Assembly (NCBI GenBank): GCA_963835065.1 | Contig: CAWIEK010000021.1 | Coordinates: forward strand, 1-32,423 | From: an uncultured Chthonomonadaceae bacterium | Lineage (GTDB): Bacteria; Armatimonadota; Chthonomonadetes; Chthonomonadales; Chthonomonadaceae | Direction: 5' to 3' | DNA length: 32,423 nucleotides | Shown: positions 88 to 30,629 of the stretch, one piece after another | How the letters are laid out: each line of letters begins with the position of its first letter | How positions within the stretch are numbered: the stretch's first letter is position 1 | The notes under the pieces: generated by a model | Told to the model about the DNA's origin: nothing | Database searches by the model: none | Seen by the model: the letters and a program-made list of their open reading frames with translations, nothing else | Made by a program: the position numbers and the translations under genes

Positions 88-981
88 ATGGAACTCTACC
101 AGCTGGAAGCCTTTGAAGCCATTGTTGCGCATGGCAGTTTTACCCGCGCGGCGGAAGCCCTGAGCCTGAGCCAGCCGGCGGTCACGCGCCAAATTGCCGG
201 TCTGGAGGCGGAATTGAAGACGCCGCTCTTTGACCGATTGGGACGTGCGGTGCAAATGACGGCGGCGGGCGAGGCGCTGCATCGCTACGCGGAAACCATG
301 ATGCGCCTGTCTCAGGAAGCGCGGCAGGCGGTTGCGGACGTGAGCGCGGGCGAAGCGGGGCGCGTCAGCGTGGGCGCGAGCAATACGCTGGCGACGTATG
401 TTCTGCCGCCCCTGCTGCGGCAGTTTCGGCAGGCGCGTCCCCGCGTGGAGATTGCGATACAAACGGGAGTTTCGGCGCAGATTTTAGAGTTGGTGCGGGC
501 AGGGGCAGCCGACATCGGGCTGGTAACGGGCGAGATACGCGATCCGCTGCTGCTGACGACGTTTCTGGCGGAGTATGAAACGCGGGTCGTGGTTTCGGTG
601 GGGCATCCTCTGGCGCGGCTGACCTCGGTAAGCGCGTCGCAACTGGCGGGCAGCCCCTTGATTTTGATGGAATCGGGAACCAACCTGCGCACGTATGTAG
701 ATCGGCTGCTCAACGAGGCGGGCGTGGAAGAGCAAGTCGCGCTGGAACTGGATAACGTCGAGGCCATCAAGCGCATGATCGAAGCAGAGTTGGGCATCTC
801 GCTGCTGCCGGAAGTGGCCGTGCGCCGGGAAGTGGCGACGGGGCGGCTCGTGGCCCTCAAACTGACCGATGTGCCCCGCGCCAAGCGCCAGATTGCTCTC
901 GTACACCGCCGCGACAAATACCTGTCCGTCGTCCTGAAAGCGTTCATGGAGATGCTGGGCAAAGTGAAGAGTGGAGAGTGA
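88..981 (+). CDS. LysR-family transcriptional regulator
   Basis: N-terminal LysR HTH (GSFTRAAEALSLSQPAVTRQIAGLE..L...LFDR), 297 aa, substrate-binding domain ending in IKRMIEAELGISLLP; GGAGG upstream. Confidence 0.95.
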   Translation: MELYQLEAFEAIVAHGSFTRAAEALSLSQPAVTRQIAGLEAELKTPLFDRLGRAVQMTAAGEALHRYAETMMRLSQEARQAVADVSAGEAGRVSVGASNTLATYVLPPLLRQFRQARPRVEIAIQTGVSAQILELVRAGAADIGLVTGEIRDPLLLTTFLAEYETRVVVSVGHPLARLTSVSASQLAGSPLILMESGTNLRTYVDRLLNEAGVEEQVALELDNVEAIKRMIEAELGISLLPEVAVRREVATGRLVALKLTDVPRAKRQIALVHRRDKYLSVVLKAFMEMLGKVKSGE

Positions 982-998
982 GAGTAAAAGTAAAAGTA
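961..998 (+). repeat. Solo purine-rich short-tandem-repeat arm overlapping the LysR stop codon
   Basis: aaagtg aagagtg gagagtg agagta aaagta aaagta; encodes the last residues KVKSGE*. Confidence 0.55.
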
Positions 999-1080
999 CA
1001 ATCCGGCGTCGTTGACCGCGCGCTTTTAGCGTATAATGTGAGTATAGCATTGTACGTTGCTGTAACATAGGAGTTGAATA

Positions 1081-1350
1081 ATGGTAGTTGTCAGTGAACC
1101 TCGTCTCAACATCGCGCAACTCGTTGCGCAGGCAAAAGCTACGAGTGAGCCTGTCGTACTTACGACCAACGGAGAAGCAGAGGTTGTCCTTCTGACGCCG
1201 GAAGCATATCAGGCGTTGCTTGATCGCATAGACCTGTTGGATAGCGTCATCGGCTTTTACAAAGCCGAACTTCAGTTTGAACGTGGCGAGTCACGCCCGG
1301 CTCGCGAAGCGCTGGAGGAGATAGGCCGCAAACATGGCATTCTACCTTGA
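1081..1350 (+). CDS. Phd/YefM-family antitoxin
   Basis: 89 aa; EPVVLTTNGEAEVVLLTPEAYQAL Phd fold motif; GGAG RBS; overlaps downstream toxin. Confidence 0.85.
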   Translation: MVVVSEPRLNIAQLVAQAKATSEPVVLTTNGEAEVVLLTPEAYQALLDRIDLLDSVIGFYKAELQFERGESRPAREALEEIGRKHGILP

Positions 1351-1690
1351 TTTCTCTGATGCCGCCTCAATGGACGCGCAGGACGCGCTTGCCTGGATGG
1401 AGCAACATTCTCCAAAGTATGCTGCGGATTGGTACATCGGTCTTATGGATGCTATTTTCTCGCTGGAGGAGATGCCGCGTCGCTGCCCATTCGCGCCCGA
1501 AAACGATTTTTCTACTCGTGAAGTTCGTCAACTGTTTTACACAAAGCGCAGTATTACCTACAGGATTGTTTTCGTAATTGTGAAGGAAGCGACGGACGAG
1601 GAGGCAGGTGAACTCCGGGTATATCGTATCCGGCATGGAGCGCAACGTCCTCTAACCGCCGGTGAGTTTAAGCAAGGTGAGAAAGATTGA
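1334..1690 (+). CDS. RelE/ParE-family toxin
   Basis: SLEEMPRRCPFAPE...YRIVF...VYRIRHGAQ ParE-like motifs; 17-nt overlap with the antitoxin. Confidence 0.85.
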   Translation: MAFYLDFSDAASMDAQDALAWMEQHSPKYAADWYIGLMDAIFSLEEMPRRCPFAPENDFSTREVRQLFYTKRSITYRIVFVIVKEATDEEAGELRVYRIRHGAQRPLTAGEFKQGEKD

Positions 1691-3435: not shown

Positions 3436-3468
3436 ATTCATGCCGCAAGGCAACTGTCAACGCCTGTT

Positions 3469-3500
3469 TTCCTTATCCCTTACCCCTTTTTCCTTATTCC
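3469..3500. repeat. Degenerate pyrimidine-rich heptamer arm downstream of fmt
   Basis: ttccttatcccttacccctttttccttattcc, roughly (ccttayc)n; may pair weakly with gtgaaagggtaaa at the fmt stop. Confidence 0.35.
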
Positions 3501-3909: not shown

Positions 3910-3980
3910 CAGGTTCCGTAAGTAAACTTATAACGTAATCAAGGTTCCAAAATTCAATAACGTGTCATTATCATCATCCC

Positions 3981-4025
3981 ATCAGGCCGTTCGTCGCGCT
4001 CAAAAGAAGCGACGAACGGCCTGAT
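3981..4025. terminator. 17-bp perfect hairpin after the LuxR gene
   Basis: ATCAGGCCGTTCGTCGC (3981-3997) / GCGACGAACGGCCTGAT (4009-4025); weak U-tract. Confidence 0.6.
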
Positions 4026-4036
4026 CGCATTTGAAC

Positions 4037-4181: not shown

Positions 4182-5034
4182 TTGAAACGTAAAGCGTTTA
4201 CGCTGATTGAGTTGCTCGTCGTGATCGCCATTATCGCCATTTTGGCCGCGATTTTGTTTCCGGTCTTTGCGCAGGCGCGCGAGAAAGCCCGGCAGACGAG
4301 CTGTTTGTCCAACCTGAAACAACTCGGACTGAGTTTGAACATGTACTCTCAGGATTACGACGGCACACTGATGCAGACGTCGTGGGAACTCGGCAGCCTG
4401 AAGGCCAAAGTGCATTGGTCTTATCTGGTGCAGCCGTATGTCAGAAAATCAGCAAATTTTTGTGTGCCCGTCTGACCCTACACCGGTAAAGCCGCTGAAC
4501 CGATTATGCGGTCCGGGCGATACGATTGGGGTGACGCTGTGCGACGCGCAGGCTCCCCTGTTCTCGTACATCAACAGCTACAACGCCATGCCCGCCCATG
4601 ACTGGATTCCACCGTCAGAAGCCGCCTTTGACAAGCCCGCCAATCTCATCGTGTTGGGTGAGCGCCGCAACAACATGAACGACGCGGCCATGACGCTTAT
4701 CGGCCAGTGGAAGGGAACCTCGCCGTTCATTGCCACAAGCGGCAATCATGGCACGGGGAACGGCAGTGGACAGGTTTGTCCCGGCGACACTTACCGCTTC
4801 GTCACATTCGCGGATGTCACCAAAGGGCTTCTGCCGTCCAACAGCAACGACAACCCGGAAATCGTGCGCGTGAAGTTTGATCGGCATACCGGTGGCTCGA
4901 ACTACGCTTTCTATGACGGTCACGCGAAGTGGTTCCGCCTGGAGCAAACGTTCGATCCCGGCAACTGGCAGTGGGGCGATAAGTGGTATCCCACCCCGAA
5001 CCCGGACCCTCGCGCCGGTTCCAAGTGCAACTAA
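4182..5034 (+). pseudogene. Prepilin-type N-methylation / DUF1559 / H-X9-DG protein, split by a +1 frameshift near 4445-4448 (pseudogene or sequence error)
   Basis: [46 protein letters not shown] in 4182..4475; IFVCPSD and RHTGGSNYAFYDGHAK in 4438..5034; removing one A from GTCAGAAAATCAG gives [15 protein letters not shown]. Confidence 0.85.
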
Positions 5035-5064: not shown

Positions 5065-5105
5065 CAAGCCGAAGCCCCGCAATCAGATTGCGGGGCTTCG
5101 GCTTG
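5065..5105. terminator. 20-bp perfect inverted repeat after the DUF1559 gene
   Basis: CAAGCCGAAGCCCCGCAATC-A-GATTGCGGGGCTTCGGCTTG; lies between convergent units. Confidence 0.7.
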
Positions 5106-5256: not shown

Positions 5257-5604
5257 CTACACAGTTTCTAGTTGGGGTATTCTCTTTGTCTATGGAGACA
5301 CCCCCAATTGCTTTAGAAGCGCGTCTACAAACGCGCTACCATACGCTGGTCGAACAACATAGTACCCCACCTTCGGCACTCGCCAGTGGCTTGCGTTCTC
5401 TGCCCGACGGCGGCAGCGGCTTTGCGGCCACCCAAGCGGCCTGGCGCTTCTTCGCCAACCCGAAGGTGACGTTGCCTGCCTTGTGCCAGCCGTTGCAGGA
5501 CTATGCCCGGCAACAGGTACAAGGACAGGCGTATGTCCTCGTGGTGCATGACTGGAGTTGGCTCGACTACAACGGGCATACGCGCAAGAAAGATCGCCTC
5601 GCGC
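5257..5604 (+). mobile_element. IS4-family (Tn5/IS50-like) insertion sequence remnant: one end plus transposase N-terminus (ORF 5286..5624)
   Basis: ATQAAWRFFANPKV...VLVVHDWSWLDYNGH resembles the Tn5-type DNA-binding domain and first catalytic Asp; rest of the DDE domain absent; candidate terminal repeat CTACACAGTTTCTAG near 5257. Confidence 0.75.
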
Positions 5605-9073: not shown

Positions 9074-10282
9074 TCAAAATTCGCTGAGTGAATAAAGCGC
9101 CGCTTTGTTTTCCATGCCGGCAGTCTCCGTGCCGGACTTGAACGTTCCCGCAACGGCCAGTGTTTTGCCGTCCGGGGAAAGCGCGATACCATTCACGATT
9201 TCAAACGGTGTTTGCAGGGTTTTCAGGTTGCTGCCGCTTTGAACATCGTAGAACTGCACAACGCGCCCCGCGCCGGCCAGAAACGTTTTGCTGTCGGGCG
9301 TAAACGTCACGGATCGCACCCATCCTAACTGCAGGCGCAGGCGCGTTGCTTCCTGCCCCAATTGCGCGTTCCACAACAGCGCGTCCGTATCCGCGCTGCC
9401 CGTGCCAATGACTTTCCCGTCCGGCGAAAACGCAAGCGAGGTCAGCAAATCGGTATGCCCTTCCAGCGCGTGCAGTTCCTTCCACTGCCGGGCATCCCAA
9501 ATTTTCAGGGCATGGACTTCGGTTCCCGTTGCCAGGGTTGCGCCATCCGGCGAGAAGGCAACGGGGTTTTCCGCGTCTTTCAACGTTGTCAGCAATTTTC
9601 CGGTCTGCGTATCCCAAACCATCACCGTATGATCGGAACTGCCGCCCGCAATCCGCTTGCCATCCGGCGAAAAAGAAACGGAAAGCACGGCGGAACTGTG
9701 CCCGGTCAGCGTACGCAGCAGGGTTCCATCCGCAGCGTTCCACAACTTGACCGTCCGGTCCCAACTGGCGCTTGCGAGGGTTTTGCCGTCCGGCGAAAAC
9801 ACGGCCTGCGCGACGACTTCCTCATGCCCATTCAAGGTCTGCGTTTCTTTGTCGGTTGCCACATCCCATAAGCGAACGGTCTTGTCCGCGCCCGCCGTTG
9901 CCAGCGTGTTGCCGTCCGGCGAAAACGCCACGCTGTTGATAAAGTCGCTATGCCCCGTAAATACGCGCAAGGGTTTCGGCGGAGGAGCGTTGCGGCTGCA
10001 TCCTGTCAATAGGAACAGAGCGAACGTGAAGAGTGAGAGTGAAAAGTTCAGAAAGAATTTGCGCGACGGGCTGAACCCCTTTGCTGTAGGGCGTTCCGCC
10101 AACTGTCCTTCGGACAGAAACCCTCTTATAAAGAATGTTGTGTCCGAAGGACACTGGGCCGCAGGCCATACAGCGAAGGGGTTCAGCCCGTCGCCACAAC
10201 GCCACAAACGCGCCAGTAGCGACAAAACAAAGGATGCCGCTCTTTTGCCTACTTGATTTTCAACTTGTCTCGCCACTCTCAC
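9074..10282 (-). CDS. WD40-repeat lipoprotein; start uncertain (10282 GTG or 10102 TTG)
   Basis: About seven GH..V..VAFSPDG..LA......TV.LW repeats; lipobox LLTGC after a hydrophobic stretch. Confidence 0.88.
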
Positions 10283-10320
10283 TCTCCACTCTCACCAATC
10301 ACTAACCACCAGCCACTACT
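10027..10320. repeat. Tandem-repeat-armed hairpin enclosing the REP-like element
   Basis: gaagagtgagagtgaaaag near 10028-10046 is complementary to cactctcactctccactct (10274-10292); heptamers caccaat cactaac caccagc cactact (10293-10320) overlap the ABC stop. Confidence 0.6.
10063..10194. repeat. REP/REPIN-like 132-bp palindromic element inside the WD40 ORF
   Basis: Arms 10063-10088 and 10169-10194 pair at 25 of 26 positions; inner inverted mini-hairpins TGTCCTTCGGACA (10104-10116) and TGTCCGAAGGACA (10141-10153). Confidence 0.8.
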
Positions 10321-12727: not shown

Positions 12728-12773
12728 TGGCAACCCCTTTCCGGCGACTTGCGCCTTGCAAACTGCTTGGGAC

Positions 12774-12836
12774 AATGATGAGTGATGAATGATGAGTGAT
12801 GAATAGAATTTCGTTCATCATTCATCACTCATCATT
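12774..12836. repeat. Heptamer-armed hairpin (GATGART)4 / (TCATCAY)3
   Basis: Left arm 12774-12804, right arm 12814-12836; 22 consecutive complementary bases. Confidence 0.85.
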
Positions 12837-12840
12837 TCCT

Positions 12841-13551
12841 CTAATACCCAACACCTAACACATACAACATCAGAACAAAATGACACGCGCTTCCTCCCAG
12901 GACAAACACATGCCATAAGTCGTGCGCGCCGAACTTGCCGGGCCATAAGCGGGGCCAGTTGGTCGCGTAAAATACGGTTCCCACGGTGTACAATACGCCG
13001 CCGCCGATAAGCCAGTACAGCGCGCTTCGCGGCAGGGTCGCCCACAACGAGGGAAGGGCGAGCAATGCAAGCCAGCCCATGCCGAGATACAAAACCACGC
13101 GCAGCCACTCCGGCTTGCTGTTGAACAGCAGAACGCAGCCAATCCCGATGGCTGCCAGCAGGTACTCCGCGCCAAGCAGACTCAATCCCCACCCACTGCG
13201 CAGAGGAACAAGGCACAGGGGCGCATACGTTCCCGCAATCAGCAGGAAAATAGCGCTGTGATCGAAGCGCATCAGGCGGTTGAGATGCCGTTCCGAAACA
13301 TGCAGGCTATGGTACAGGCCACTGGCAAGATACAACACAATCAAACTGCCGCCGTAAATGGCGAAGCCCAGCGTGTGCCAGGGCTTGCCCCGCGACAAAA
13401 CCAGCAGCGCAATCAAACCTAAAACCGAAATCACCGCCCCGGCAAGGTGCGAAAAGCCGCTAAACGGCTCACGCGGCCAGAAGCGTTTGCTTGCCGCCAC
13501 TTGCACGGACGGTTTCTGATTTTCAACTTCATTTACATTGATTTCGGACAT
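12841..13551 (-). CDS. Hemolysin III / PAQR-family membrane protein (TrhA/YqfA-like)
   Basis: EPFSGFSH, SGLYH, RFDHSAIFLLIAGTYAP, YTVG, HDLWHVFVLGGSACHF. Confidence 0.93.
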   Translation of the reverse strand: MSEINVNEVENQKPSVQVAASKRFWPREPFSGFSHLAGAVISVLGLIALLVLSRGKPWHTLGFAIYGGSLIVLYLASGLYHSLHVSERHLNRLMRFDHSAIFLLIAGTYAPLCLVPLRSGWGLSLLGAEYLLAAIGIGCVLLFNSKPEWLRVVLYLGMGWLALLALPSLWATLPRSALYWLIGGGVLYTVGTVFYATNWPRLWPGKFGAHDLWHVFVLGGSACHFVLMLYVLGVGY

Positions 13552-18139: not shown

Positions 18140-18180
18140 CCGAACACCCAACACCAAATACCAAACACCGACTACCGACA
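18140..18180. repeat. Solo heptamer arm, six units, next to the DUF4337 stop
   Basis: ccgaaca cccaaca ccaaata ccaaaca ccgacta ccgaca. Confidence 0.75.
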
Positions 18181-18816: not shown

Positions 18817-18849
18817 TTTGCGCCCCTCCTGTGTTCCCTTTGAACTTTA

Positions 18850-18880
18850 ATTTGCGTGTATTCGCGCGTATTTGCGGCTA
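18850..18880. repeat. Solo 10-mer arm (ATTYGCG family) next to the ROK stop
   Basis: atttgcgtgt attcgcgcgt atttgcggct a; same family as 21894 and 23743. Confidence 0.7.
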
Positions 18881-20153: not shown

Positions 20154-20169
20154 GTCGTTTTGCTGCATG

Positions 20170-21060: not shown

Positions 21061-21168
21061 TGCTGTTCCCTCCTGATGAATGCGCTTTCAATTTCAGTAT
21101 AAGGGCACAACGTAAAAATGCGATAAAAGAACGCAGCGTCGGAGTAGAATTTTTTCGGTTGGAAACAA

Positions 21169-21846: not shown

Positions 21847-21893
21847 ACCGCGAACTCCTTCCTTGCGCGTTCTTCGCTGTCCTCTGATGGGAA

Positions 21894-21915
21894 TAGCCGC
21901 GAATGAACGCGAATG
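21894..21915. repeat. 10-mer-family arm upstream of the SRAP gene
   Basis: TAGCCGCGAATGAACGCGAATG, the exact reverse complement of 23753-23774. Confidence 0.75.
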
Positions 21916-22197
21916 GCGATGTAATACTGTCACTCCACAATAAACGGCTGAAGCGGAAAAACTACCATGAACCTGACTATTTCTTATGACTACTTATTGG
22001 TAGTTTCAAGGGTTCCTGGTGATTGGTGATCTGCCCCCGCTAAGTTCGGTCAATTTGCAACAATAAAGAGAACAGGCTTTTCGCTTGCTCTGCGCAAATG
22101 GATATTGGCAATGTCGCGGAGCGGAAACGCAGAAACAAGACTCGAAAAGCGCAGGAGATAGAGCCGGGAGTAACGAATTGATAGCGAACGTTTTACC

Positions 22198-22233
22198 CCT
22201 GAACACCAGAACACCTGAATACCTGAATACCGA
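22198..22233. repeat. Solo octamer arm just before the manD start
   Basis: cctgaaca ccagaaca cctgaata cctgaata ccga. Confidence 0.75.
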
Positions 22234-22242
22234 GGCTTCCTT

Positions 22243-23659
22243 ATGAAAATAACCGATGTGCGCGTGATTGTCACCTGTCCCACCCGCAACTATGTCGTCG
22301 TCAAAATTATGACGGACGAACCCGGCTTGTATGGCGTCGGCGACGCGACGCTCAACGGGCGCGAATTGGCCGTCGCAGTCGCATTAACCGAGCATATCGC
22401 GCCCCTGCTGATTGGCCGCGACCCCGACCAGATCGAGGACATCTGGCAGATGCTGTTTCGGGGAACCTACTGGCGCGGCGGCCCTGTCCTGATGACCGCG
22501 CTGGCCGGTATAGACATTGCCCTGTGGGACATCAAAGGCAAACGCGCCGGACTGCCCGTGTATTCCCTGCTCGGCGGCAGAACGCGAATGGGCGCACTCG
22601 CCTACACCCACGCGGGCGGGCGCGATTTTCAGGAAGTGGAAGACAACGTTCGGCAGTGCATGGAGCGCGGCTTCAAAGTGGTGCGCGCCCAGGTTGCCAT
22701 TCCCGGCACAATCGGCACGTATGGCGTCGGCGGTGCCAAAGAAGCCGCGTCCGCCACCTGGAACGCCCCTCCCGCCCTGCCCGAACCCCGCGACCCGGCG
22801 GAAACGCAGGGGGAACCGGCTTCTCCGTCACCGGAAGGGGCAAAGGACAAGGAGACAAGGAGACAAGGAGAAGGAGAAGAATCAATCCACAATCCACAAT
22901 GCACAGGGATCATTAATGACTTCATCCCTCACTCCTCATCCCTCATCCCTTCCTGTTGGTGATGGCGGACCGATGCCGCAAGTCGAAACATGGGAGCCGG
23001 GGCCGTATTTGCGAACTATTCCCCGCTTGTTTGCGCATTTACGGGATAAACTGGGCGAGGAGGTGGAACTGTTTCATGATGTGCATGAGCGCCTGACGCC
23101 GATACAGGCCGCTCGACTGGCGCGGGAACTGGAACCGTACCACCTGTTCTTTCTGGAAGACTGCCTGCGCCCCGAACATAAAGAGAGTTTCCGCCTTATT
23201 CGGCAGCACACGACTACGCCTCTTGCTATGGGCGAATTGTTCCATACCAAATGGGACTGCCTGCCTCTGCTGGCCGAACAACTCATAGATTACATTCGCT
23301 GCGACCTGGGACACATCGGCGGCATTACGGAAGCGAAAAAGATCGCGGCTATCGCCGAGTGTTACTACATTCAAACCGCGTGGCATGGACCGGGCGACAT
23401 CGGACCCGCCATGCACGCCGCCAATGTCCATGTAGACCTTGCCATCCCCAACTTCGGCGTTCAGGAAATGGTGGCGTTTTCCGAAGAGGTTCACGAAGTT
23501 CTGCCCGGCGCTCCCATTTTCCAGAACGGCTATCTCAATGTCACGGACGCCCCCGGCCTGGGCGTGGACGTGAACGAGGAAGCGGCAGCCCGCTACCCCT
23601 ACAAGCGCGCCTACCTGCCCAACACCCGCCGCGCCGACGGTTCGGTAATGGACTGGTAA
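22243..23659 (+). pseudogene. manD: Enolase-superfamily D-mannonate dehydratase (ManD/RspA subgroup), +1 frameshift within a repeat-derived loop insertion
   Basis: [31 protein letters not shown]...YG in 22243..22962; HDVHERL, LED, MGE, AWHGP, PGLGVD and DGSVMDW in the 22517..23659 frame. Confidence 0.88.
22846..22950. repeat. Composite tandem-repeat insert inside manD
   Basis: (GACAAGGA)3 at 22846-22869; (AATSCAC)3 at 22884-22904; TCATCCC-like x4 at 22922-22949. Confidence 0.85.
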
Positions 23660-23666
23660 CGGCTTT

Positions 23667-25451
23667 TTGGAGGTAAACTATCTTCATCTTAATTGGCCGA
23701 ACGGAAACGAGTTGCCTCCAATTTCTGAATTATCTTTATCTACATTCGCGTTCATTCGCGTTCATTCGCGGCTAGTTCTTCTATTCTCCTGCGCGCTGAT
23801 TGTGGTCGCGCTGTGGCTGCTGCAATGGACGCCGTACCTCAATGTCGCCAACGATTCGGGCCGCTATATGGTCTTAGGCGAATCATTGGCGCGAACCGGC
23901 GATTTGCGGCTGCTCAACGATGTGCGGCAGCCGCTTGATACCCTCTACCCGCCCGGTTTCCCCGCCATCATCGCCTTCTGGATGCGCGTCACCGGGCGTG
24001 ACGCGATAGGCGTGATCCTGCCCGTCAAATTAACGCTGCTGGCTCTGCTGCTCGCTACCTTGCCGATGCTCTACGCGCTGCTCACCCGCGCCCGCCTTCC
24101 CAACCGCTACATTGCCGCCGGACTTTTCATCGCTGCCACCTGCCCTGCCCTGATTTCCTACGCCAACGAAGTGATGTCGGAAATGCCGCTGCTGTTCCTG
24201 TGCCTGGCGTCTGTTGTAGCGGTTGAGGAAACAGGGAACAGGGGACAGGGAATAGAAGAGAAGAAAAGAAGAGAAGAGAAGACGGAAGACGAGGAACCCT
24301 CAACCCTCAACCCTCAACCCTCAACGAGAAACTCCTGTTCCCTGTTCCCTGTTCCCTGTTCCCTTGCTTGCGCTGCCGCCGCGTTCCTGATGCGAACGTC
24401 AGGGATTGCCTTGCTGCTGGCGCAGACGGTCTGGTTTTGGAAGCGGTTTGGGTGGAAGTGGGGTATGGCGGCGCTGCTGGTAATGTTGGTAGTCGTGGGC
24501 GGTTGGCTGAAGCGCAACTCGCATATCACCAAAGCGCACCCGGAAATCCGTTATTCCAGTTATGTGGATCAGTTCACGCTGCGCAATCCAATGCAGGCGG
24601 ACGCGGGGCGCATACCGCTCAATGCGCGCGGCCTGCTGTCGCGTATGAAGTTCGGCCTGCCGACGTACATCGGTTTGATACCCCGCGCGCCCCTGTACAT
24701 GATGGCTCCACCGCGCACCGGCTGGCTGATGCTGTTTTACGTCGTTGCCGTTCCCCTCACGCTGCTGATGTTTGTTGGCATTGGCGAAGCGTGGAAGCGC
24801 GGCCTGAAGTTGTCAGTTGGGTTTGCGTTGCTGTTCTGGTTTGTGGCGGCGATGTGGCCCTGGCAGAACGCCCGTTTTCTGGTTCCGCTCATTCCGTTTA
24901 TGATTTTGTTTTTGGTGCTCGGCGTGTATGTCGCGTCCGAATGGCTGCGCAAGCGCTCCAATACGCGAGCGGTTCATGCCGCGCAATGTATCGGGGTCGC
25001 TGCGCTGCTGGTCTATTTTGCGAATGTGCATCTTCGCGTGATATGGCAGGAACACCGCCCGACACTGCCCGGTTATGCGTTCGGCAGAAACCGGGACGAA
25101 GCCGGGTTTTATGCCGCCTGCGCCTGGCTGCGCCAAAACTCCGACCCGCGCGAAATCGTCATGGGCAAGCCGCAATACCTGCTGCACCTGTACGCGGGCA
25201 ATCTCACGGCGCAGTTGGAGCCGACTACAAGCGCGCGGGCGCAGGAAAAAGCGTATATCGCGCCGCAGCATGTCCGCTATCTGCTGCAGGACTCCTGGCA
25301 GTGGGGCGTACCTCCAAGCCGCAAAATCTTCGACAACTATCTGCAAGAGTACGGCGACCGCTGGCAGTCCGTCTGGACCGACCCGAACGGCAGCGGGGTA
25401 AGAATATGGCGGCGGAAAGAGGAATGGCAAACCGCGAAACACGCGAACTAA
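23667..25451 (+). CDS. GT-C fold (ArnT/PMT-like) polytopic glycosyltransferase; start uncertain
   Basis: DSGRYMVLGESL, YPPGFP, MSEMPLL, MRTSG, RFLVPLIPF; many TM segments. Confidence 0.8.
   Translation: MEVNYLHLNWPNGNELPPISELSLSTFAFIRVHSRLVLLFSCALIVVALWLLQWTPYLNVANDSGRYMVLGESLARTGDLRLLNDVRQPLDTLYPPGFPAIIAFWMRVTGRDAIGVILPVKLTLLALLLATLPMLYALLTRARLPNRYIAAGLFIAATCPALISYANEVMSEMPLLFLCLASVVAVEETGNRGQGIEEKKRREEKTEDEEPSTLNPQPSTRNSCSLFPVPCSLACAAAAFLMRTSGIALLLAQTVWFWKRFGWKWGMAALLVMLVVVGGWLKRNSHITKAHPEIRYSSYVDQFTLRNPMQADAGRIPLNARGLLSRMKFGLPTYIGLIPRAPLYMMAPPRTGWLMLFYVVAVPLTLLMFVGIGEAWKRGLKLSVGFALLFWFVAAMWPWQNARFLVPLIPFMILFLVLGVYVASEWLRKRSNTRAVHAAQCIGVAALLVYFANVHLRVIWQEHRPTLPGYAFGRNRDEAGFYAACAWLRQNSDPREIVMGKPQYLLHLYAGNLTAQLEPTTSARAQEKAYIAPQHVRYLLQDSWQWGVPPSRKIFDNYLQEYGDRWQSVWTDPNGSGVRIWRRKEEWQTAKHAN
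23743..23774. repeat. 10-mer arm (CATTCGCGTT)3 at the 5' end of the GT-C gene
   Basis: cattcgcgtt cattcgcgtt cattcgcggc ta; translated as FAFIRVHSRL. Confidence 0.8.
24227..24363. repeat. Heptamer-armed hairpin inserted in frame in the GT-C gene
   Basis: GGGAACA-like x4 (24227-24254) / (CCTGTTC)4 (24334-24363), enclosing (AGAAG)n and (AACCCTC)4. Confidence 0.88.
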
Positions 25452-25650
25452 ACGAAAAAGAACCAAAAGGGAAAATAAGAGGGGCAGGGAGAGTGAAGCA
25501 AGGGGGGAAGCAGAGAATCGCCTATAGAACATCAAGCGAACAGGAACCTTGTGCTATAATGGGACACGCATTTTTCTAGTTTCGTTCTGATTTCTTATGG
25601 AAGCGTCTTTGACCTGTTCTTTTTCGCGTTCTTTCGCGCTTTTCGCGGTT
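25430..25650. repeat. AACCGCGAAA-family hairpin element between the GT-C and reductase genes
   Basis: Left aaccgcgaaacacgcgaactaaacgaaaaaga; right tcttttttcgcgttctttcgcgcttttcgcggtt; left arm nearly identical to 27927-27966. Confidence 0.8.
25552..25560 (+). promoter_or_regulatory. Extended -10 promoter inside the hairpin loop
   Basis: TGCTATAAT (TGnTATAAT), about 100 nt upstream of ATG 25662. Confidence 0.55.
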
Positions 25651-25661
25651 CATTTAGTATT

Positions 25662-26999
25662 ATGAAGCACTACGATGTGGTTGTGGTTGGGACGGGGCCG
25701 GCGGGTAATGCGGCAGCGTTTGAACTGGCGAGGGCGGGCAAAACCGTCGCGCTGCTGGAAAAGCAGATTTTGCCGCGTCACAAAACCTGTGGCGGCGGAA
25801 TGCCGATGGTGGTGTCGCAGGTAATCGGTTTGGATACGCTGCGCGACCTGGCTCCCGATGCGTTTGTCGAGGCCGACACGCGCTGGATGCGCCACACCTA
25901 TAATTTCAGCGACCCGTACCTTGCGCCCATGAACATGGAAAGCGCGTCCATAAACATAGCAACTGGCGGGGAAAATAACGGCGCAGGCGATGGGGCGAAA
26001 CAGGGGCGGCAGTTGTCGCTGTGGATGGTGCGGCGTTCCGTATTTGACTATGCGCTGGCGCAGCGGGCGGCAAGCGCGGGCGCGGAACTGCGCGACGGGC
26101 TGGCCGTCAAAACGCTGGAAATCAGCGCGGGCAAGCCCATTGTTGTGCGGGCGGAAGGCAAAAGCATTGGGGGCGAGGACGCGAGTACGGTTTGGGAAGC
26201 AACTGCCGATGTGGTCATTGGCGCGGATGGGGCGAACGGCATTGTCGCCAAAACCGTTGGATTGCGGCGGGAACGCGCCCTTGCCATTGCCCTTGAAGCC
26301 GAAGTGCCGCATACGTGGGGCAGCGGACATCCCGATCTGCGCCCGGACGTGTGCCATCTGGAATATGGAGCCGTAAAGCGGGGCTATGCGTGGGTCTTCC
26401 CCAAAGGAGACCATCTTAATGTCGGCGCGGGCGTGTTCCGTCCACGCGGCGAACAGAGCCGGGGCGACAGCACGGTGCGCAATGAACTGCGCCGCGCAAT
26501 CGTAGATTACCTGCGTCTGCTGGACGTGCCAAAAACCGAAGCGGAACTGACGTTCTATGCCCACCCTCTGCCCATTTGGGACGGCATGGAAACCCTGCAA
26601 ACGCGCGACAACCGCGTTCTTTTGGCGGGAGATGCCGCAGGGCTAATCAACCCCTTTTTCGGCGACGGCATTCTCCACGCGCTGAAAAGCGGGCAAATCG
26701 CCGCGCAGTGCATCCTTGCCGGCAATGAAGCGGGCTACACTCGCGCCATTCGAGACGAGTTCAAAACCAATTTCGATGCCGCCTTGAAATTGGCAAAGGT
26801 GTTCTACCGGTGGCCCGGCTTCATTTACAAGCATGGCGTGAAGCGTCCGGGCGCAACGCATACGGCAACGCGCCTGCTGGCGGGCGAACTGAACTTTAAG
26901 GATGTATCCGGGCGCGTGATGCGGCGTTTGCGCCGCGCCATGCTGACCGACCACTCCCCGGACGCCATTGACCCACAGGAGTTGAACAAAGTAGGCTGA
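25662..26999 (+). CDS. Geranylgeranyl reductase-family FAD-dependent oxidoreductase
   Basis: GTGPAG, PRHKTCGGG, RRSVFD, IGADGANG, GYAWVFPK, LAGDAAGLINPFFGDGI. Confidence 0.92.
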   Translation: MKHYDVVVVGTGPAGNAAAFELARAGKTVALLEKQILPRHKTCGGGMPMVVSQVIGLDTLRDLAPDAFVEADTRWMRHTYNFSDPYLAPMNMESASINIATGGENNGAGDGAKQGRQLSLWMVRRSVFDYALAQRAASAGAELRDGLAVKTLEISAGKPIVVRAEGKSIGGEDASTVWEATADVVIGADGANGIVAKTVGLRRERALAIALEAEVPHTWGSGHPDLRPDVCHLEYGAVKRGYAWVFPKGDHLNVGAGVFRPRGEQSRGDSTVRNELRRAIVDYLRLLDVPKTEAELTFYAHPLPIWDGMETLQTRDNRVLLAGDAAGLINPFFGDGILHALKSGQIAAQCILAGNEAGYTRAIRDEFKTNFDAALKLAKVFYRWPGFIYKHGVKRPGATHTATRLLAGELNFKDVSGRVMRRLRRAMLTDHSPDAIDPQELNKVG

Positions 27000-27052
27000 A
27001 CGAATCAGTAGAAGTCGCTTGAATATGAATTGCTTGAAAAGGAGAGGAACCC

Positions 27053-27844
27053 ATGAACTCGGACAACAAGCAGGAGAGTGAAGAACTCAACGGCGTTGAC
27101 CGCCGCCGCTTTCTGACACTGGGCGCAGCCGGCTTGACCGCGCTCGGAACCGCCGCCGCCTTGTACCCGGCAGACGCGCAGGACGCGCCCGCCAAAGGCA
27201 GTACCCCGGCCATGATTACCGCCAAACCCCTGCCCCAAAAGGTGTACAACACGGAAAAAGCCGGCATCAGCCGCAAAACCCACGATGAGCATTACAAACT
27301 CTACATGGGCTACGTCAACAAAGTCAATGAAATCCGAACCAAACTGGCCGGGCTGGGCGTTCCCGATCCGACCAAAGCCAATGCCACCTACAGCGACATC
27401 CGCGAACTGAAAGTGGAGTACTCGTTCGCGCTTGGCGGCGTCAAGAATCACGAACTCTATTTCGGGCATCTTGGCGGCGACGGCGGTGAGCCGACGGGCA
27501 TGATCGGCGACCTCATCAAGAGCGCGTTCGGCAGCTACACCAACTGGAAAGCCGACCTGAAAGCAACGGGAATTGCCGCGCGTGGTTGGGTGTGGCTGGC
27601 GCACGACCATACGGACGGCAGCCTGTTCAACTACATCGGCGACGCGCAAAACGCTTTTCCCGTCTGGCACGCCACGCCTCTCCTCGGCCTCGACGTGTAC
27701 GAACATGCCTACTGGCTGGACTTCCAAACCGCCCGCGCCAAATACATTGATGCCTTCTTCCAGGTGATAGATTGGGACGCGGTCAACGCCAACCTCAAAG
27801 TCGCCGCCGCCGTCGCCGATGCCGCCAAAGGCGCAAGAGGGTAA
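27053..27844 (+). CDS. Tat-exported Fe/Mn superoxide dismutase-family protein
   Basis: DRRRFL twin-arginine signal ending ADA; HYKLY, NHELYF and DVYEHAY metal-ligand motifs; AGGAG RBS. Confidence 0.9.
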   Translation: MNSDNKQESEELNGVDRRRFLTLGAAGLTALGTAAALYPADAQDAPAKGSTPAMITAKPLPQKVYNTEKAGISRKTHDEHYKLYMGYVNKVNEIRTKLAGLGVPDPTKANATYSDIRELKVEYSFALGGVKNHELYFGHLGGDGGEPTGMIGDLIKSAFGSYTNWKADLKATGIAARGWVWLAHDHTDGSLFNYIGDAQNAFPVWHATPLLGLDVYEHAYWLDFQTARAKYIDAFFQVIDWDAVNANLKVAAAVADAAKGARG

Positions 27845-27852
27845 TACGAATG

Positions 27853-28178
27853 AACCACCCGCTGCGCTAGAGGCACAGAGACACAGAGAGGGAACACAGA
27901 GAAAAAAGAAAAAAAGAAGGGGTAAGAACCGCGAAACACTCGAAATAAACGAAAAAAGACCAAAAGAACATGGGCAAATCCGAAGACGCCGCGCATGTTT
28001 AGAACAAGCAGGCTTCTCTTCTCTAGTTTGTAATCCTGTTTAATCCTTCTAATCCCATTAATCCTGTCTATTTCTTTTGTTCTTTTTCGTCCTGGTTCGT
28101 ATATTTCGCGGTTCTTATCTCTCCTTCTCGCATTGGTTTTTCCTCTGTGTCTCTGTGCCTCTAGCGCAGCGGGTGGTT
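27853..28178. repeat. Nested (three-family) tandem-repeat hairpin element
   Basis: 36-bp perfect IR 27853-27888 / 28143-28178; inner imperfect IR 27923-27968 / 28072-28117; innermost TAATCC-based repeat x4 at 28031-28069. Confidence 0.9.
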
Positions 28179-28201
28179 TACTTCTGCATTGGAGCGCGGC
28201 A

Positions 28202-29443
28202 ATGGACGGTTTCGCGGTGCGGGCAATTCGGGCGGAGGAGCGGGAGGAGTGCCTGCGCCTATGGGAGACGGTGTGGCCGGGCGCAAACAGCCCGGCCTAT
28301 TTCCGCCGCTACTTTTATGGCGACCGGGAATGGCTGCCGTATTATACGCAGGTGGGCGTTCTGGACGGCAAAATCGTCAGCGCGGTGCAGATTTGCAAGC
28401 GAACGGTAGCCTGTGGCGACGCCAAATTGACGATGGGCGGCATTGCCAATGTGGCGACCCTGCCGGAATATCGGGGCCGGGGCTATAATACGCAATGCCT
28501 GCAAAGCGCGATTGGCATCATGGAATCCGACGCGATGGATTTCTCATTGCTGTTTACGGGTATCCACGATTATTATGCGCGGCAGGGCTTTGAAACCATT
28601 TCGCAGGCGCGGCTTTCCGGCGTAATCCGCGCCGGGTTTGCGCCCCGTGAAACAAAGTACGCGGTTCGTAAGGCGATTGGCGATGATTTGCCTGCTATCC
28701 AACAGTGCTACGACGATTACAACCAACAGCGTCCGATTGCCGTGCAGCGCTACCCGGCGTACTGGCGCGACTGGATGAACATAAATCCGCAGCACATTCC
28801 CGAAACTTTGTTGGTAGCAGTGGAACAGACGGGCGGGGTTGTTGGTTACGTGAATACGGGCGTGTTCAAAAGCGCGGTTCCCTACAGCGCGGAGGAAGTC
28901 GGCGCAAGCATTATCGAATTTGGAACGCGGGGCGGATTGGATGTGGGGGAACAAGACGAAGCAGCCTGCGCCTTGCTGGGAACGGTAGCGCGGGAAACGC
29001 TTGCCGGTGGCGGCACACAATTACGCCTGCAAATCGCGCTGACGGCTTCCGTCCGGCAGGCATTTGAAAACATCGTCAGCGCAGCCGAACAGGCGACACG
29101 AACAAGCGGGATGGCGCGTTTATTGCACCGGGACAACCTGTTGCGCAGCCTGACAATGGGGCTGAATGACCGCTGGATTAACGCGGGACAGCCGCCCGGA
29201 ACCGTAACCTTCGCCACACCCTACGGCGCGGTTCGGCTGGATGCGACGAGCGCGTTCCTGCGCGTATCGGCAGTGGAAACAACAAACGTCGGGGAAGAAG
29301 CATTACCACAATCGGCTTTGTTCGGCCTGCTGTTTGGAATACAGACACCAGAGCAGGTGACGGCACAAAGGGAAACACGCGCCTTGCTATCCGTGCTGTT
29401 TCCGCCGCAAGATTTTGTTTACTATGGAGCCGATGGATTCTGA
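28202..29443 (+). CDS. Eis-like GNAT acetyltransferase
   Basis: MGGIANVATLPEYRGRG, SLLFTG..DYYARQGF, second GNAT-like domain; GGAG before ATG 28202. Confidence 0.88.
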   Translation: MDGFAVRAIRAEEREECLRLWETVWPGANSPAYFRRYFYGDREWLPYYTQVGVLDGKIVSAVQICKRTVACGDAKLTMGGIANVATLPEYRGRGYNTQCLQSAIGIMESDAMDFSLLFTGIHDYYARQGFETISQARLSGVIRAGFAPRETKYAVRKAIGDDLPAIQQCYDDYNQQRPIAVQRYPAYWRDWMNINPQHIPETLLVAVEQTGGVVGYVNTGVFKSAVPYSAEEVGASIIEFGTRGGLDVGEQDEAACALLGTVARETLAGGGTQLRLQIALTASVRQAFENIVSAAEQATRTSGMARLLHRDNLLRSLTMGLNDRWINAGQPPGTVTFATPYGAVRLDATSAFLRVSAVETTNVGEEALPQSALFGLLFGIQTPEQVTAQRETRALLSVLFPPQDFVYYGADGF

Positions 29444-29473
29444 CTGCTGTTGAGAAGGGAATGATGCAGGACA

Positions 29474-30511
29474 ATGGCGTTGATGCTGGATGAAATTTAT
29501 GAGCAGCCGCAGGCGATTGCATCGGCGGTAGAACAGGAATACGCTAACGTCGCGCGGCTGGTGTCGGAACTGCGCGAACGCGACATCCGGCACGTCATTA
29601 TTGCGGCGCGGGGCACGTCGGACAATGCGGCCACGTATGCCAAATACCTGCTTGAAATCGTGTGCGGCGTACCGGTTTCCCTTGCGGCTCCTTCGGTGTA
29701 CACGCTGTATGACGCTCATGTACAGTTGGGCGGCTGTCTGATGATCGGCATTTCGCAGTCCGGGCAGGCGACGGATGTGGTGCAGACGCTTTCTACGGCA
29801 AGGGCAACCGGCGCATTGACGGCCTGCATTACCAATGTGGCGAATTCGCCCATTACTTACGTCAGCGACCACGTTCTGCTATGCCATGCCGGGGAAGAAA
29901 AAGCGATTGCGGCGACCAAAACGTATACCACCGCGCTGGCGCTGATTGCGCTGCTGGCGGGGCAGTGGGGCAACAAAAGCAGCCTTCTCAATGGGCTGAA
30001 GCAAATCCCGGAACAGATGCGAGCCGTGCTGGAATTGGACGAGGTGATCGCGCAGGCGGTGGAGCGGTATCGCTACATTACGGAGTGCGCGGTTCTGGCG
30101 CGCGGCTTGAATCAGGCGACCGCTCTGGAAGCCGCGCTGAAAATGTCGGAAACAAGTTATTTGGGCGCGAACTCTTACAGCGGCGCGGACTTTCTGCACG
30201 GCCCGATTGCCATTGTAGGCGAAGGTTTTCCCTGCTTTTTGTACGTACCCGATGGACGCGCGTATCCGATGATGCTGGAACTCGCGCTGAAACTGCGGGA
30301 GCGCGCGGCGGAAATGGTTGTGATTGCCCGTTCCCACGAAGCGCTGGAACTGGCGCAGCGCCCCTTACCCATGCCTGTTGACTGCGACGAACTGCTCAGT
30401 CCCCTGCTGTACATCGTGCCGGGGCAGCTTTGGGCGTTCCATCTCGCCCATGCGCGGGGCCAAAACCCGGACAAGCCGCGCGGATTATCGAAAGTAACGC
30501 TGACAAGATAG
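29474..30511 (+). CDS. SIS-domain sugar-phosphate isomerase/deaminase (GlmS isomerase-like, no glutaminase domain)
   Basis: EIYEQP, ARGTSDNA, GISQSG, AATKTY, EAALKMSE, HGP, NPDKPRGLSKVTLTR. Confidence 0.9.
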   Translation: MALMLDEIYEQPQAIASAVEQEYANVARLVSELRERDIRHVIIAARGTSDNAATYAKYLLEIVCGVPVSLAAPSVYTLYDAHVQLGGCLMIGISQSGQATDVVQTLSTARATGALTACITNVANSPITYVSDHVLLCHAGEEKAIAATKTYTTALALIALLAGQWGNKSSLLNGLKQIPEQMRAVLELDEVIAQAVERYRYITECAVLARGLNQATALEAALKMSETSYLGANSYSGADFLHGPIAIVGEGFPCFLYVPDGRAYPMMLELALKLRERAAEMVVIARSHEALELAQRPLPMPVDCDELLSPLLYIVPGQLWAFHLAHARGQNPDKPRGLSKVTLTR

Positions 30512-30516
30512 GAGGC

Positions 30517-30629
30517 AGGCATTAGGCATTAGGCATTAGGCATTAGGAAAATTACATGTGTGGCGCTGTCTAGAACAGCCTATCCTATCATGTATGCGCC
30601 TAATGCCTAATGCCTAATGCCTAATGCCT
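30517..30629. repeat. Heptamer-armed hairpin (AGGCATT)4 / (AATGCCT)4
   Basis: 31-bp perfect IR 30517-30547 / 30599-30629 with inner TACATG/CATGTA stem; fills most of the intergenic space. Confidence 0.92.

Follow-up and report, generated by a model that had tools for sequence, protein, structure and literature searches.

The window, that is, the whole stretch of 32,423 nt analysed here (contig CAWIEK010000021.1, positions 1 to 32,423, from an uncultured Chthonomonadaceae bacterium), carries short tandem-repeat arrays at the ends of its genes and within some of them, either alone or as the facing arms of hairpins. Arms were read on the coding strand and are termed left-type when G-rich and right-type when C-rich. 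The features are collected in Table 1, in which fold strength is the z-score of folding against shuffled sequence. All six complete hairpins of the original prediction, which was made from the window alone, were recovered at the coordinates given there. An Rfam search of the window gave no match. For comparison we used the source genome (G000; assembly 92% complete), a congener (G002), a further relative (G001) and one contig (run X1), which are kin and not independent trials.

Table 1. Repeat-armed features of the window and their strands.
Position	Strand	Feature	Remarks
959..998	+	Solo left-type arm, GAGAGT-type then AGTAAA	Overlaps LysR stop at 979–981
3467..3497	+	Solo right-type arm, AAGGGAT family	32 nt past + strand stop at 3435
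10026..10320	.	Composite	GAGAGT arms 10026–10047 and 10269–10302; GGTGGTT-family arm 10293–10316
10063..10194	.	RAYT-type REP doublet (REPIN) within GAGAGT arms	Separate, known system
12774..12836	.	Complete short-loop hairpin, AATGATG/GATGAGT family	Fold z −8.7 (12765–12845)
12841..12864	-	Left-type arm (coding strand)	Provides stop of HlyIII-family gene
18140..18169	-	Solo left-type arm, GGGTGTT family	Past DUF4337 stop
18847..18880	-	Solo left-type arm, 10-nt unit	Past ROK stop; common to source genome and congener
21889..21915	-	Right-type arm, 10-nt unit	Upstream of SRAP; also in congener
22195..22231	+	Solo right-type arm, CAGGTGTT family	11 nt ahead of manD start
22842..22950	+	Chimeric insertion within manD	One left arm, two unrelated right arms
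23672..23776	+	GxxExxY cassette remnant, gene tail and right arm	Solo arm at 23743
24226..24364	+	In-frame hairpin within membrane-protein gene	AACAGGG outer arms, GAGGGTT inner right arm
25430..25650	.	9-nt-unit hairpin, weak pairing	Same arm family, other loop in congener and further relative
27853..28178	.	Nested element	CACAGAG outer arms, 9-nt inner arms, extra right arm
30517..30629	.	AGGCATT hairpin, SIS gene stop to DUF3866 start	Fold z −8.8 (30505–30640)

The solo arm at 3467–3497 is a true exception to the polarity described below and was absent from the list of the original prediction. The exception claimed there, at 21863–21886, does not score as an arm, and the SRAP array beside it follows the rule. 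The composite at 10026–10320 sits at the stop of a minus-strand transporter gene; the REP repeat that it encloses also flanks a RAYT-like gene at C51:103107, and three of the 34 matches to this repeat in the source genome adjoin the RAYT-like gene on C51. Where the source genome has the arm at 18140–18169, the congener is armless and its spacer is shorter. The insertion in manD has no stable fold (z −0.3) and exceeds by 7 nt the in-frame element found at the same site in the congener, so that manD reads as two ORFs. The remnant at 23672–23776 is identical to the end of an intact cassette of the congener in 81 of 103 columns and shares a reading frame with the start of the ORF that follows. The GT-C label proposed for 23802–25451 found no Pfam or NCBIfam match.

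The in-frame element at 24226–24364 (24220–24368, fold z −5.6) lies at a site that is occupied by other families in the congener and in the further relative. Region 25425–25660 folds weakly (z −1.8, with 10 of 200 shuffles as good). The nested element at 27853–28178 (27845–28185, fold z −15.1) has copies of 75–83% identity elsewhere in the source genome; its outer arms are those of the congener, its inner arms differ and the site is empty in the further relative. The hairpin at 30517–30629 has four units in four lineages: AGGCATT here, AAAAGGG in the run X1 contig, AGGGAGT in the congener and an AGGAAAA-type unit in the further relative. Over 1039 nt of the SIS gene the contig differs at 37 positions (96% identity).

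The source genome contains 5048 tandem-repeat arrays, compared with 230 after a triplet-block shuffle, and 689 close inverted arm pairs, or about 700 small hairpins. The first arm has more G than C in 664 of these pairs (C exceeds G in 10, with 15 ties), whereas inverted pairs spaced 300–5000 nt apart split 147 to 115 of 272. The excess of arrays over the shuffle and the G-first skew of the pairs together exclude chance. On gene calls made for the analysis (6547 genes, with some AT-rich genes missed), left-type solo arms outnumber right-type arms by 497 to 31 at stops, and right-type arms outnumber left-type by 160 to 35 at starts. The arms consist of direct tandem arrays and not of one short imperfect palindrome (REP) per end; the largest families are GATAGTT (329 arms) and AGGCATT (282 arms). 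Repeat-armed hairpins with this polarity, proposed from the window, are thus confirmed genome-wide, as is the orientation of the solo arms.

We compared 449 conserved junctions across 2.06 Mb of the congener. Arms are present in both genomes at 137 junctions, in the source genome alone at 46, in the congener alone at 16 and in neither at 250; when both gaps measure 60 nt or more (320 junctions), the corresponding counts are 135, 33, 11 and 141. Presence/absence polymorphism, which the original prediction had anticipated, is therefore seen at 62 of the 449 junctions, and empty alleles were found. A hairpin is present in both genomes at 62 junctions, and the families differ in 52 of them. This measured count of family turnover at shared sites is new here: different families overwrite the same sites, which is the main property of the system and one that the original prediction missed. 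At 45 of the 52 swapped sites both genomes carry a plain two-arm element, just three sites share any arm family, and the outer ends lie within 10 nt of each other at 35 (left) and 42 (right) of the 52. The orthologous loops (n = 32) are nearly unrelated, with a score of −0.03; shuffled pairs score −0.16 ± 0.03, neutral drift simulated from the 65% identity measured at four-fold sites gives 0.67, and a set of 58 spacers that lack arms gives 0.66. Sites inside genes behave alike, the congener also being armed at 10 of 11. Counting against complete turnover, the family is kept on the same side at 34 of the 137 shared sites, compared with 4.9 by chance, and survival bias alone might yield part of the site fidelity. 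Inspection by eye of a few empty and filled alleles, among them C56:61963 and C57:47111, revealed no target-site duplication, although one may be masked by the 35% neutral divergence. Stability of the sites together with turnover of their contents argues against an interpretation of the arrays as species-specific regulator sites or G-quadruplexes.

The elements are copied with their loops. In three loop clusters, with 43, 24 and 19 members, the flanks of the copies are unrelated, so that two conserved inverted ends around a variable spacer move as a unit. One loop profile matches 51 of 78 CAGTAGT loops, one of 70 AGGCATT loops and none of 497 shuffles, the scoring set including its 43 training loops; none of three pieces from the interior of a cassette with CAGTAGT arms matched it, a result that gives no support to descent by internal deletion. 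Loop orientation relative to transcription (18:18, 8:9 and 4:11) fits a step at the DNA level. The original description of the elements as non-autonomous and mobile is supported by these recurring loops and by the empty alleles, but they are sequence families with loops of their own and are not purely structure-defined.

New elements are also inserted into the loops of old ones. Among 38 nested sides, 10 share the outer arm family with the congener, one the inner family, two both and 25 neither; the inner arm begins no more than 8 nt from the outer arm on 28 of 49 left sides and 16 of 32 right sides. Solo arms occur in multi-arm clusters in 1372 of 2433 cases and mismatched two-arm clusters run left-then-right in 205 of 296, which favours half-replacement and deletion, and not shuffling at loops as first proposed, as the main origin of solo arms. 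Co-directional junctions keep their gene order in the congener at 65 of 101 hairpins, 28 of 78 one-sided arms and 51 of 207 arm-free gaps. Mobility, the link to particular genes and insertion into loops thus survive from the earlier interpretation, while loops as rearrangement points do not.

Two small genes are enclosed by arms. Four-helix-bundle genes (TIGR02436/PF05635) have arms with 7–8-nt units and GxxExxY nuclease genes (PF13366) mostly 9–10-nt units; all three of each kind in the source genome are enclosed, so that this tie, noted in the original prediction, holds. Across the order, pairing flanks were found at 25 of 28 four-helix-bundle and 33 of 38 GxxExxY loci, with a best period of 7–8 in 24 of the 25 and of 9–10 in 28 of the 33. 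The agreement is imperfect for GxxExxY: just 13 of the 33 pass the periodicity cut-off, just 24 of the 33 have G in excess of C, and the gene at C19 of the source genome has mismatched arms that fail the pairing test. The TIGR02436/PF05635 ORF lies inside a terminal stem, as in an rRNA intervening sequence, but the cassettes of the source genome stand between protein genes and not in an rRNA helix. In an alignment of 39 GxxExxY sequences E35, D75, E85, K87 and Y103 are invariant and Q99 is nearly so. The predicted model (pLDDT 94) matches Cas4, lambda exonuclease and Hjc resolvase, and the modelled fold together with the conserved E, D and ExK marks the protein as a putative PD-(D/E)XK nuclease. 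A search for cargo between matched arms found only these two genes, and not the shared transposase of a MITE; ORF-filled spans (32 left-right and 43 right-left) hold mostly ordinary genes. Two points count against a role for the pair: no cassette was matched for the two largest families, GATAGTT and AGGCATT, in the 92% complete source genome, and we know of no catalytic role for the four-helix-bundle protein.

In our view, these are short mobile hairpins of dozens of families, replaced in place across relatives, whose movement probably depends on the two small genes acting in trans, a reading to which we would give an even chance. It builds on the observed families, copying of arm with loop, same-site replacement, nesting, half-replacement and match of arms to genes. 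The hairpins are likely to be REPIN-like selfish DNA that re-targets occupied sites. They are found in the space from a stop codon to the following start signal, and within genes where they preserve the reading frame. The cycle would begin with cleavage of a resident hairpin, probably in cruciform or single-strand form; for the 9–10-nt class the Cas4/RecB-like GxxExxY nuclease is the likely cutter, while for the 7–8-nt class a ring of the four-helix-bundle protein may bind the arms, with a nuclease acting in trans. The donor copy would then be written into the resident loop, and the old outer arms would shrink by slippage to the few bases needed by the stop codon and ribosome site. Solo and mismatched arms would be the leftovers of this overwrite cycle.

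More tentatively, and we regard this as possible at best, the elements may form a homing-like class that recognizes structure and not sequence, in which competing hairpin families, driven by small and unrelated proteins (an Avd-like ring and a Cas4-like nuclease), cut or invade whatever hairpin is resident and overwrite it. Operon junctions and protein interiors would then contain fixed slots whose contents turn over between near-identical species, and a single cause would underlie bacterial heptamer repeats, rRNA intervening-sequence ORFs and the orphan GxxExxY family. No mechanism accompanied the earlier descriptions of gene-end heptamer arrays, for which the name STRR is used, of the rRNA intervening-sequence protein or of the GxxExxY family; the data join them into one testable system with named proteins and DNA substrates. 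The elements also alter proteins by means of in-frame segments, stop codons, in-frame sequence at a gene start (23743) and the disruption of manD. If the targeting is real, such a small nuclease system, able to write DNA into hairpins and independent of any target sequence, would be of interest for genome engineering.

The strongest competitor, although an unlikely one, is that mobile elements land anywhere and survive solely in dispensable DNA such as an older element. Nesting is common and the outer arm is usually the shared one. In 10 of 11 alignments (two ending inside arms) the length difference within the gene is divisible by three, which indicates that selection filters insertions. Other mobile DNA enters the sites as well, namely the REPIN at 10063 and a probable toxin–antitoxin pair behind a left arm at C24:83578. 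Against this explanation stand the swapped sites that are plain two-arm elements in both genomes with closely agreeing outer ends, the swap at 30517 between genes that are 96% identical, and the short distances between inner and outer arms.

Host selection offers a second, distinctly less probable account, in which a stem of about 30 bp is kept at operon junctions for RNase III-type RNA processing or decay, its sequence being interchangeable and mobility merely supplying the parts. The 23S intervening sequence of Coxiella has a 28-bp heptamer stem that is cut by RNase III (PMC4990558), hairpins are scarce between divergent genes (17 of 487, compared with 481 of 3144 gaps) and they favour conserved junctions. 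Nor do they resemble terminators: a T-rich tract, as in the U tract of an intrinsic terminator, occurs at just 100 of 1484 ends, and a terminator scan of 21000–32423 gave six sites compared with 14.6 in shuffles. The loops are poor in −10-like hexamers (85 of 419, compared with 131 in shuffles). However, 440 adjacent left-right pairs mix families, the single one folded (that in manD) being without a stable stem, many junctions are armed in one genome alone, and copies occur inside genes, one of them breaking manD. An RNA-processing role is compatible with the mobile-hairpin reading as a secondary effect.

Movement via RNA, in which an Avd-like four-helix-bundle protein helps a reverse transcriptase to copy an excised hairpin into a DNA break, we consider improbable. 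It would account for the G-rich strand always running toward the loop and, through partial copying from each end, for left-then-right chimeras; transcribed sites are preferred, the rRNA element is excised as RNA (PMC4990558) and two proteins of the source genome match the Avd model weakly (E values of 2e-6 and 5e-7, below the cut-off). However, both reverse transcriptases of that genome lie outside arms, one between cas2-like and cas1-like ORFs and the other beside a SWIM/BRCT-like ORF (labelled by eye), and genome G005, although it encodes a four-helix-bundle protein, gave no hit to PF00078. The two largest clusters show no preferred loop orientation, and conservation by base (A 0.68, C 0.70, G 0.71, T 0.75) gives no adenine-specific variation. 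A diversity-generating retroelement, with a reverse transcriptase next to Avd and such variation, was considered and rejected.

It is very doubtful that nothing moves, with arrays arising by slippage at gene ends and arms drifting jointly by hairpin-templated repair. Some swaps do involve similar units (AGGCATT and AGGGAGT, seven sites), and in two orthologous GxxExxY cassettes (L040 and C39) both arms have changed alike by one base per unit, so small unit changes may remain the work of drift. The orthologous-junction comparison largely refutes the rest: loops are nearly unrelated at orthologous sites yet homologous at unrelated ones, empty alleles exist, and site L034 holds a four-helix-bundle cassette in the congener and a 9–10-nt-class hairpin in the source genome. 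Hardly credible is movement by the genome's RAYT-like transposases as REPINs, despite four Y1 matches in the source genome and a similar shape with conserved inverted ends, a variable spacer and a length of about 100 bp (10.1101/2021.07.10.451892), since the two full-length Y1 genes (C42 and C51), a cargo type also sought by the original prediction, have palindromic repeats of their own and not tandem arms, which enclose PF05635 and PF13366 genes instead.

REPIN–RAYT systems are nevertheless a close parallel, in which non-autonomous doublets, about 100 bp long, have conserved ends around a spacer that varies (PMC3116915; bioRxiv 10.1101/2021.07.10.451892). A genome has several such families, and the cognate gene carries these ends on its flanks. 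They differ in that REPs are self-palindromic, where the present arms are tandem 7–10-nt arrays of fixed G-first polarity; in that the cognate gene is an HUH transposase, not a four-helix-bundle protein and a PD-(D/E)XK nuclease; and in that REP doublets are randomly spread extragenically and rarely mixed, whereas the elements here reuse sites and are often chimeric. The Coxiella S23p intervening sequence (PMC4990558; PDB entries 2GSC and 2RLD) likewise places a four-helix-bundle ORF in its loop and has tandem heptamers in a stem of some 28 bp, but the cassettes described here and hundreds of gene-less hairpins sit in protein-coding operons.

The G-rich heptamers of Xanthomonas and Nostoc (PMC4692102) and the TAACTGA repeats of Beggiatoaceae (PMC4679880) share with ours about four units per array, a G-rich strand past stops and its antisense before starts, convergent pairs and scarcity between divergent genes. 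They are interpreted as single-family G-quadruplex or regulatory motifs, and the available text of these papers names no cognate gene or same-site swap; many units in the source genome lack a run of three G. Octa- and heptanucleotide sites of Geobacter metallireducens (PMC2700814) likewise comprise several classes of facing arrays of 3–5 units with variable spacing, and G. sulfurreducens has another repeat in the proBA gap; they are read as sites for unknown global regulators, the swap being a single anecdote compared with the rate measured here. Polarity and paired arrays are thus already published for single families (PMC4692102; PMC2700814). PF13366 is given as of unknown function (PMC3424549). 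The GxxExxY protein shares its fold and catalytic pattern with Cas4/RecB-type PD-(D/E)XK nucleases and Hjc resolvases, from which it differs in its minimal, stand-alone form of 131 residues within repeat arms.

The tandem-repeat hairpins, in which a G-rich left-type arm and its C-rich right-type complement enclose a loop, form a real and pervasive system of non-autonomous hairpin DNA, and their site-faithful turnover is unusual. In the source genome (G000), TRF detected 5048 tandem arrays of period 5–24, compared with 230 in a shuffle. Inverted pairs less than 300 nt apart (n = 689) had the G-rich arm first in 664 cases and the C-rich arm first in 10; beyond 300 nt (n = 272) this bias was almost gone (147 versus 115). 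Loop lengths peaked at 50–60 nt, with a second group at 5–19 nt. A 70-family arm library, with orientation set partly from the close inverted pairs, gave 742 simple left-then-right hairpins and no right-then-left ones; among 1757 adjacent arm pairs, just 22 were right-then-left and 440 were left-then-right pairs of differing families. Separated left–right pairs were in slight excess over right–left pairs at 0.4–1.5 kb (20 versus 7), numbered 51 versus 37 at 1.5–5 kb and showed no excess at 5–20 kb (148 versus 148).

Arm position relative to genes was scored on our own gene calls for G000. Among solo arms on the coding strand, 497 of the 528 at stops were left-type, a figure that may be inflated because several left units hold stop codons; 160 of the 195 at starts were right-type, which cannot be explained in this way. 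Of 532 left arms, 258 began −5 to +4 nt from the stop; of 442 right arms, 175 ended 10–19 nt upstream of the start. Divergent gene pairs seldom had a hairpin in the gap (17 of 487, compared with 481 of 3144 gaps). PMC4692102 already describes the polarity, the four-unit arrays and the convergent pairs, and the accessible text of PMC4679880 and PMC2408588 reports related arrays, there with no cognate gene named. A role for the hairpins as terminators or promoters was rejected from the sequence pattern.

The arms match the class of gene that they enclose. As originally noted, no intact cognate gene lies within the window; such genes sit elsewhere in G000, where three PF05635 (four-helix-bundle) and three PF13366 (GxxExxY) genes are each enclosed by arms of a different family. 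Across the order, flank pairing exceeded the 95th percentile of cross-locus controls at 25 of 28 four-helix-bundle loci and 33 of 38 GxxExxY loci; the test left out five partial PF05635 loci (L197–L201), four partial PF13366 loci (L045 and L048–L050) and one PF13366 locus with a short flank. The period was 7 or 8 in 24 of the 25 pairing four-helix-bundle loci, and the best period was 9 or 10 in 28 of the 33 pairing GxxExxY loci, 13 of the latter being above the periodicity cut-off. We note that L177, a four-helix-bundle gene in another genome (G005 C1:955451), has a C-rich paired upstream arm, the sole exception among the 25. A tree of 28 four-helix-bundle proteins brings similar units together (one clade contains four loci with 8-nt arms), a grouping that may reflect kinship. 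The protein matches TIGR02436 and PDB entry 2GSC and, weakly, Avd. PF13366 is catalogued as being of unknown function in PMC3424549; its E, D, ExK and Y residues are invariant in 39 sequences, and structure prediction from the alignment gave a confident model closest to Cas4, λ exonuclease and Hjc. No cargo other than these two gene types was evident between arms.

A tblastn search of G000 for decayed cassette genes beside solo arms returned just the 3 + 3 known genes and two marginal matches without arms. The one cassette remnant in the window was detected by orthology alone, not by tblastn: the solo arm at 23743 forms the end of a GxxExxY cassette, the tail of which matches the congener G002 in 81 of 103 columns, and at this junction G002 has a left arm, the whole GxxExxY gene and the same right arm. 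In both genomes the arm shares its reading frame with the beginning of the following ORF, which may explain the retention of the arm. In the one pair of genomes compared, array density was 113 per Mb in the congener G001, with no PF05635 match, and 334 per Mb in G002, with two.

Hairpins have also been copied to unrelated sites. Among 533 hairpins, loop families with unrelated flanks formed clusters of 43, 24 and 19, and 318 of 341 similar loop pairs were dispersed copies, identical loop pairs being kept apart as segmental duplicates. A profile of the largest cluster matched 61 of 497 G000 loops, including 51 of 78 in the CAGTAGT family (with the training set among those scored), compared with 3 of 90 G002 loops and 0 of 497 shuffled loops. 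Empty alleles exist, for example at C56:61963 and C57:47111, where G002 has just 8–12 nt between the genes. The two largest clusters showed no relation between loop orientation and transcription. Adenine-directed mutagenesis was rejected, as loop variation is not adenine-specific. Identical hairpins with identical flanks on different G000 contigs (such as C27/C29, C43/C69 and C8/C20) suggest that the assembly contains segmental duplicates or a mixture of strains.

At conserved junctions, resident hairpins have been replaced by those of other families. The comparison covered 2.06 of the 7.5 Mb of G002 and 0.46 of the 6.6 Mb of G001. For the 449 junctions conserved with G002, arms were present in both genomes at 137, in G000 only at 46, in G002 only at 16 and in neither at 250, an odds ratio of 47 (52 with both gaps at least 60 nt); for the 108 conserved with G001 the respective counts were 12, 35, 2 and 59. 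Both G000 and G002 had a hairpin at 62 junctions, of the same family in just 10, and 45 of 52 family swaps involved a plain two-arm element in both. Families were nevertheless retained at 34 of the 137 shared sites, against 4.9 expected. Orthologous loops scored −0.03, close to shuffled pairs (−0.16 ± 0.03) and far below neutral drift (0.67) and arm-free spacers (0.66), so either whole elements were swapped or the loops evolved much more quickly than neutral sequence.

At 30517–30629 the window carries AGGCATT; the unit at this site is AGGGAGT in G002, of the AGGAAAA type in G001 and, from 30 letters of the left arm, AAAAGGG in a metagenome contig (run X1), in which the adjoining SIS gene has 37 differences over 1039 nt. 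Scanning metagenome contigs by pattern gave no further alleles of this junction. The X1 contig also has 270 nt at 29443–29466, where the window has 22 nt. Arms were likewise present in G002, mostly of other families, at 10 of 11 in-gene sites (two in the window and nine from the whole genome whose ortholog fell within the sample). Sites are common to both classes, as at a junction where a four-helix-bundle cassette in G002 corresponds to a hairpin of the 9–10-nt class in G000, and in one orthologous GxxExxY cassette the left arm alone was exchanged. At a site where G002 carries a four-helix-bundle cassette, G000 (C24:82671–83578) shows a left arm from a different family and, after it, about 900 nt resembling a toxin–antitoxin pair. 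Newcomer elements enter the loop of the resident hairpin, as judged at nested sides by which arm belongs to a family shared with G002 (outer 10, inner 1, both 2, neither 25). Arm perfection did not differ clearly between inner and outer arms (0.895 versus 0.905), and the order of age was therefore taken from the comparison with G002.

Our preferred reading, to which we give an even chance, is that these exchanges occur at the DNA level, with the two cassette genes acting in trans to overwrite the resident hairpin. GxxExxY would cut the resident hairpin, the four-helix-bundle ring would bind the arms, the donor would be copied into the loop and slippage would remove the old arms. The two proteins are candidates open to direct testing. 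For Geobacter, PMC2700814 describes paired arrays of 7- and 8-nt units and a single same-site swap, and its supplements may hold more sites. A literature search that took in few subscription journals gave no paper treating dispersed arms and these genes as one system, nor any measurement of overwriting between families.

The main rival, that junctions are safe havens where elements survive without targeting, we consider unlikely. The loops had been predicted to act as rearrangement points, which the data contradict: co-directional junctions were kept in 65 of 101 cases with a hairpin, 51 of 207 without arms and 28 of 78 with one-sided arms. Loops are therefore not rearrangement hotspots, since hairpin junctions are conserved more than arm-free gaps; breaks may have split some hairpins. 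Host use of the hairpins as RNase III sites, for which heptamers in an RNase III-cut stem around an S23p ORF provide a precedent (PMC4990558), is less probable again and may hold alongside either overwriting or safe havens. An RNA-templated route is less probable still and would have no linked reverse transcriptase; neither of the two G000 reverse transcriptases lies between arms. One (L171, C49:681660) lies between cas2-like and cas1-like ORFs, labelled by eye. All three congeners encode a reverse transcriptase of similar length (L174, G000 C50:52695; L172, G002; L173, G001), near a hairpin whose family differs in each (CAGTAGT, TAGGTAGA and AAAGGAG); in L174 and L172 this hairpin is immediately upstream, at one common offset.

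The hairpin system works like REPIN–RAYT (PMC3116915; 10.1101/2021.07.10.451892), yet membership tests place it outside that group. The RAYT-like genes carry repeats of their own; tandem inverted repeats are not borne out in the RAYT paper PMC5581495, in which the word 'tandem' occurs 0 times. A RAYT-type REP family with 34 matches (window 10063–10194) has its own transposase-like gene (G000 C51:102871–103595), and a second Y1 gene (C42:76532) has a REP-like flank of a different kind. A partial Y1 transposase gene (C49:523642–524023) has 18-nt tandem arrays on both sides, one in frame, representing a third arm type.

Within the window, which spans G000 C21:1–32423, the listed arrays and inverted pairs are present, and four of the six listed hairpins fold far better than shuffles. 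A polarity exception had been claimed near SRAP, but the arm scan did not score it as an arm; the true exception lies elsewhere (see table). No Rfam or tRNA match was found in the window.

Coordinates of further features in the window
Position	Feature	Remark
3467–3497	Arm	True polarity exception
3976–4030	Ordinary non-tandem inverted repeat	Probably terminator
5065–5105	Ordinary non-tandem inverted repeat	Probably terminator
12461–12502	Ordinary non-tandem inverted repeat	Probably terminator
15091–15173	Ordinary non-tandem inverted repeat	Probably terminator
20120–20156	Ordinary non-tandem inverted repeat	Probably terminator
10027–10320	Short arm pair	Encloses RAYT-type REP doublet
25430–25650	Hairpin	Weak fold
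25549–25558	TG-n-TATAAT motif	Within loop of 25430–25650
22243–23659	manD-family dehydratase	Two ORFs
4182–5034	Prepilin-type N-terminal ORF (label by eye)	Overlapping frames 4182–4475 and 4438–5034
5286–5624	Truncated transposase fragment (weak PF14706 match)	Followed by DUF4365-like ORF, then 157-aa ORF
1081–1690	Small accessory pair at gene junction	
6635–7194	Small accessory pair at gene junction	
14225–14890	Small accessory pair at gene junction	
31833–32351	Small accessory pair at gene junction	

The weakly folding hairpin may carry a promoter for the downstream reductase gene in its loop, because the TG-n-TATAAT motif is kept in G002 and a similar motif is found in G001. A repeat insertion splits the manD-family gene; compared with G002 the insertion is out of frame by a single 7-nt step, for which a true frameshift, phase variation and an error of assembly are all possible explanations; the apparent split of the prepilin-type ORF is possibly a frameshift. 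The accessory pairs comprise a Phd antitoxin with a partner, ParD/ParE, a Gp49-like protein with an HTH protein, and XisI, whose upstream partner seems to be broken.
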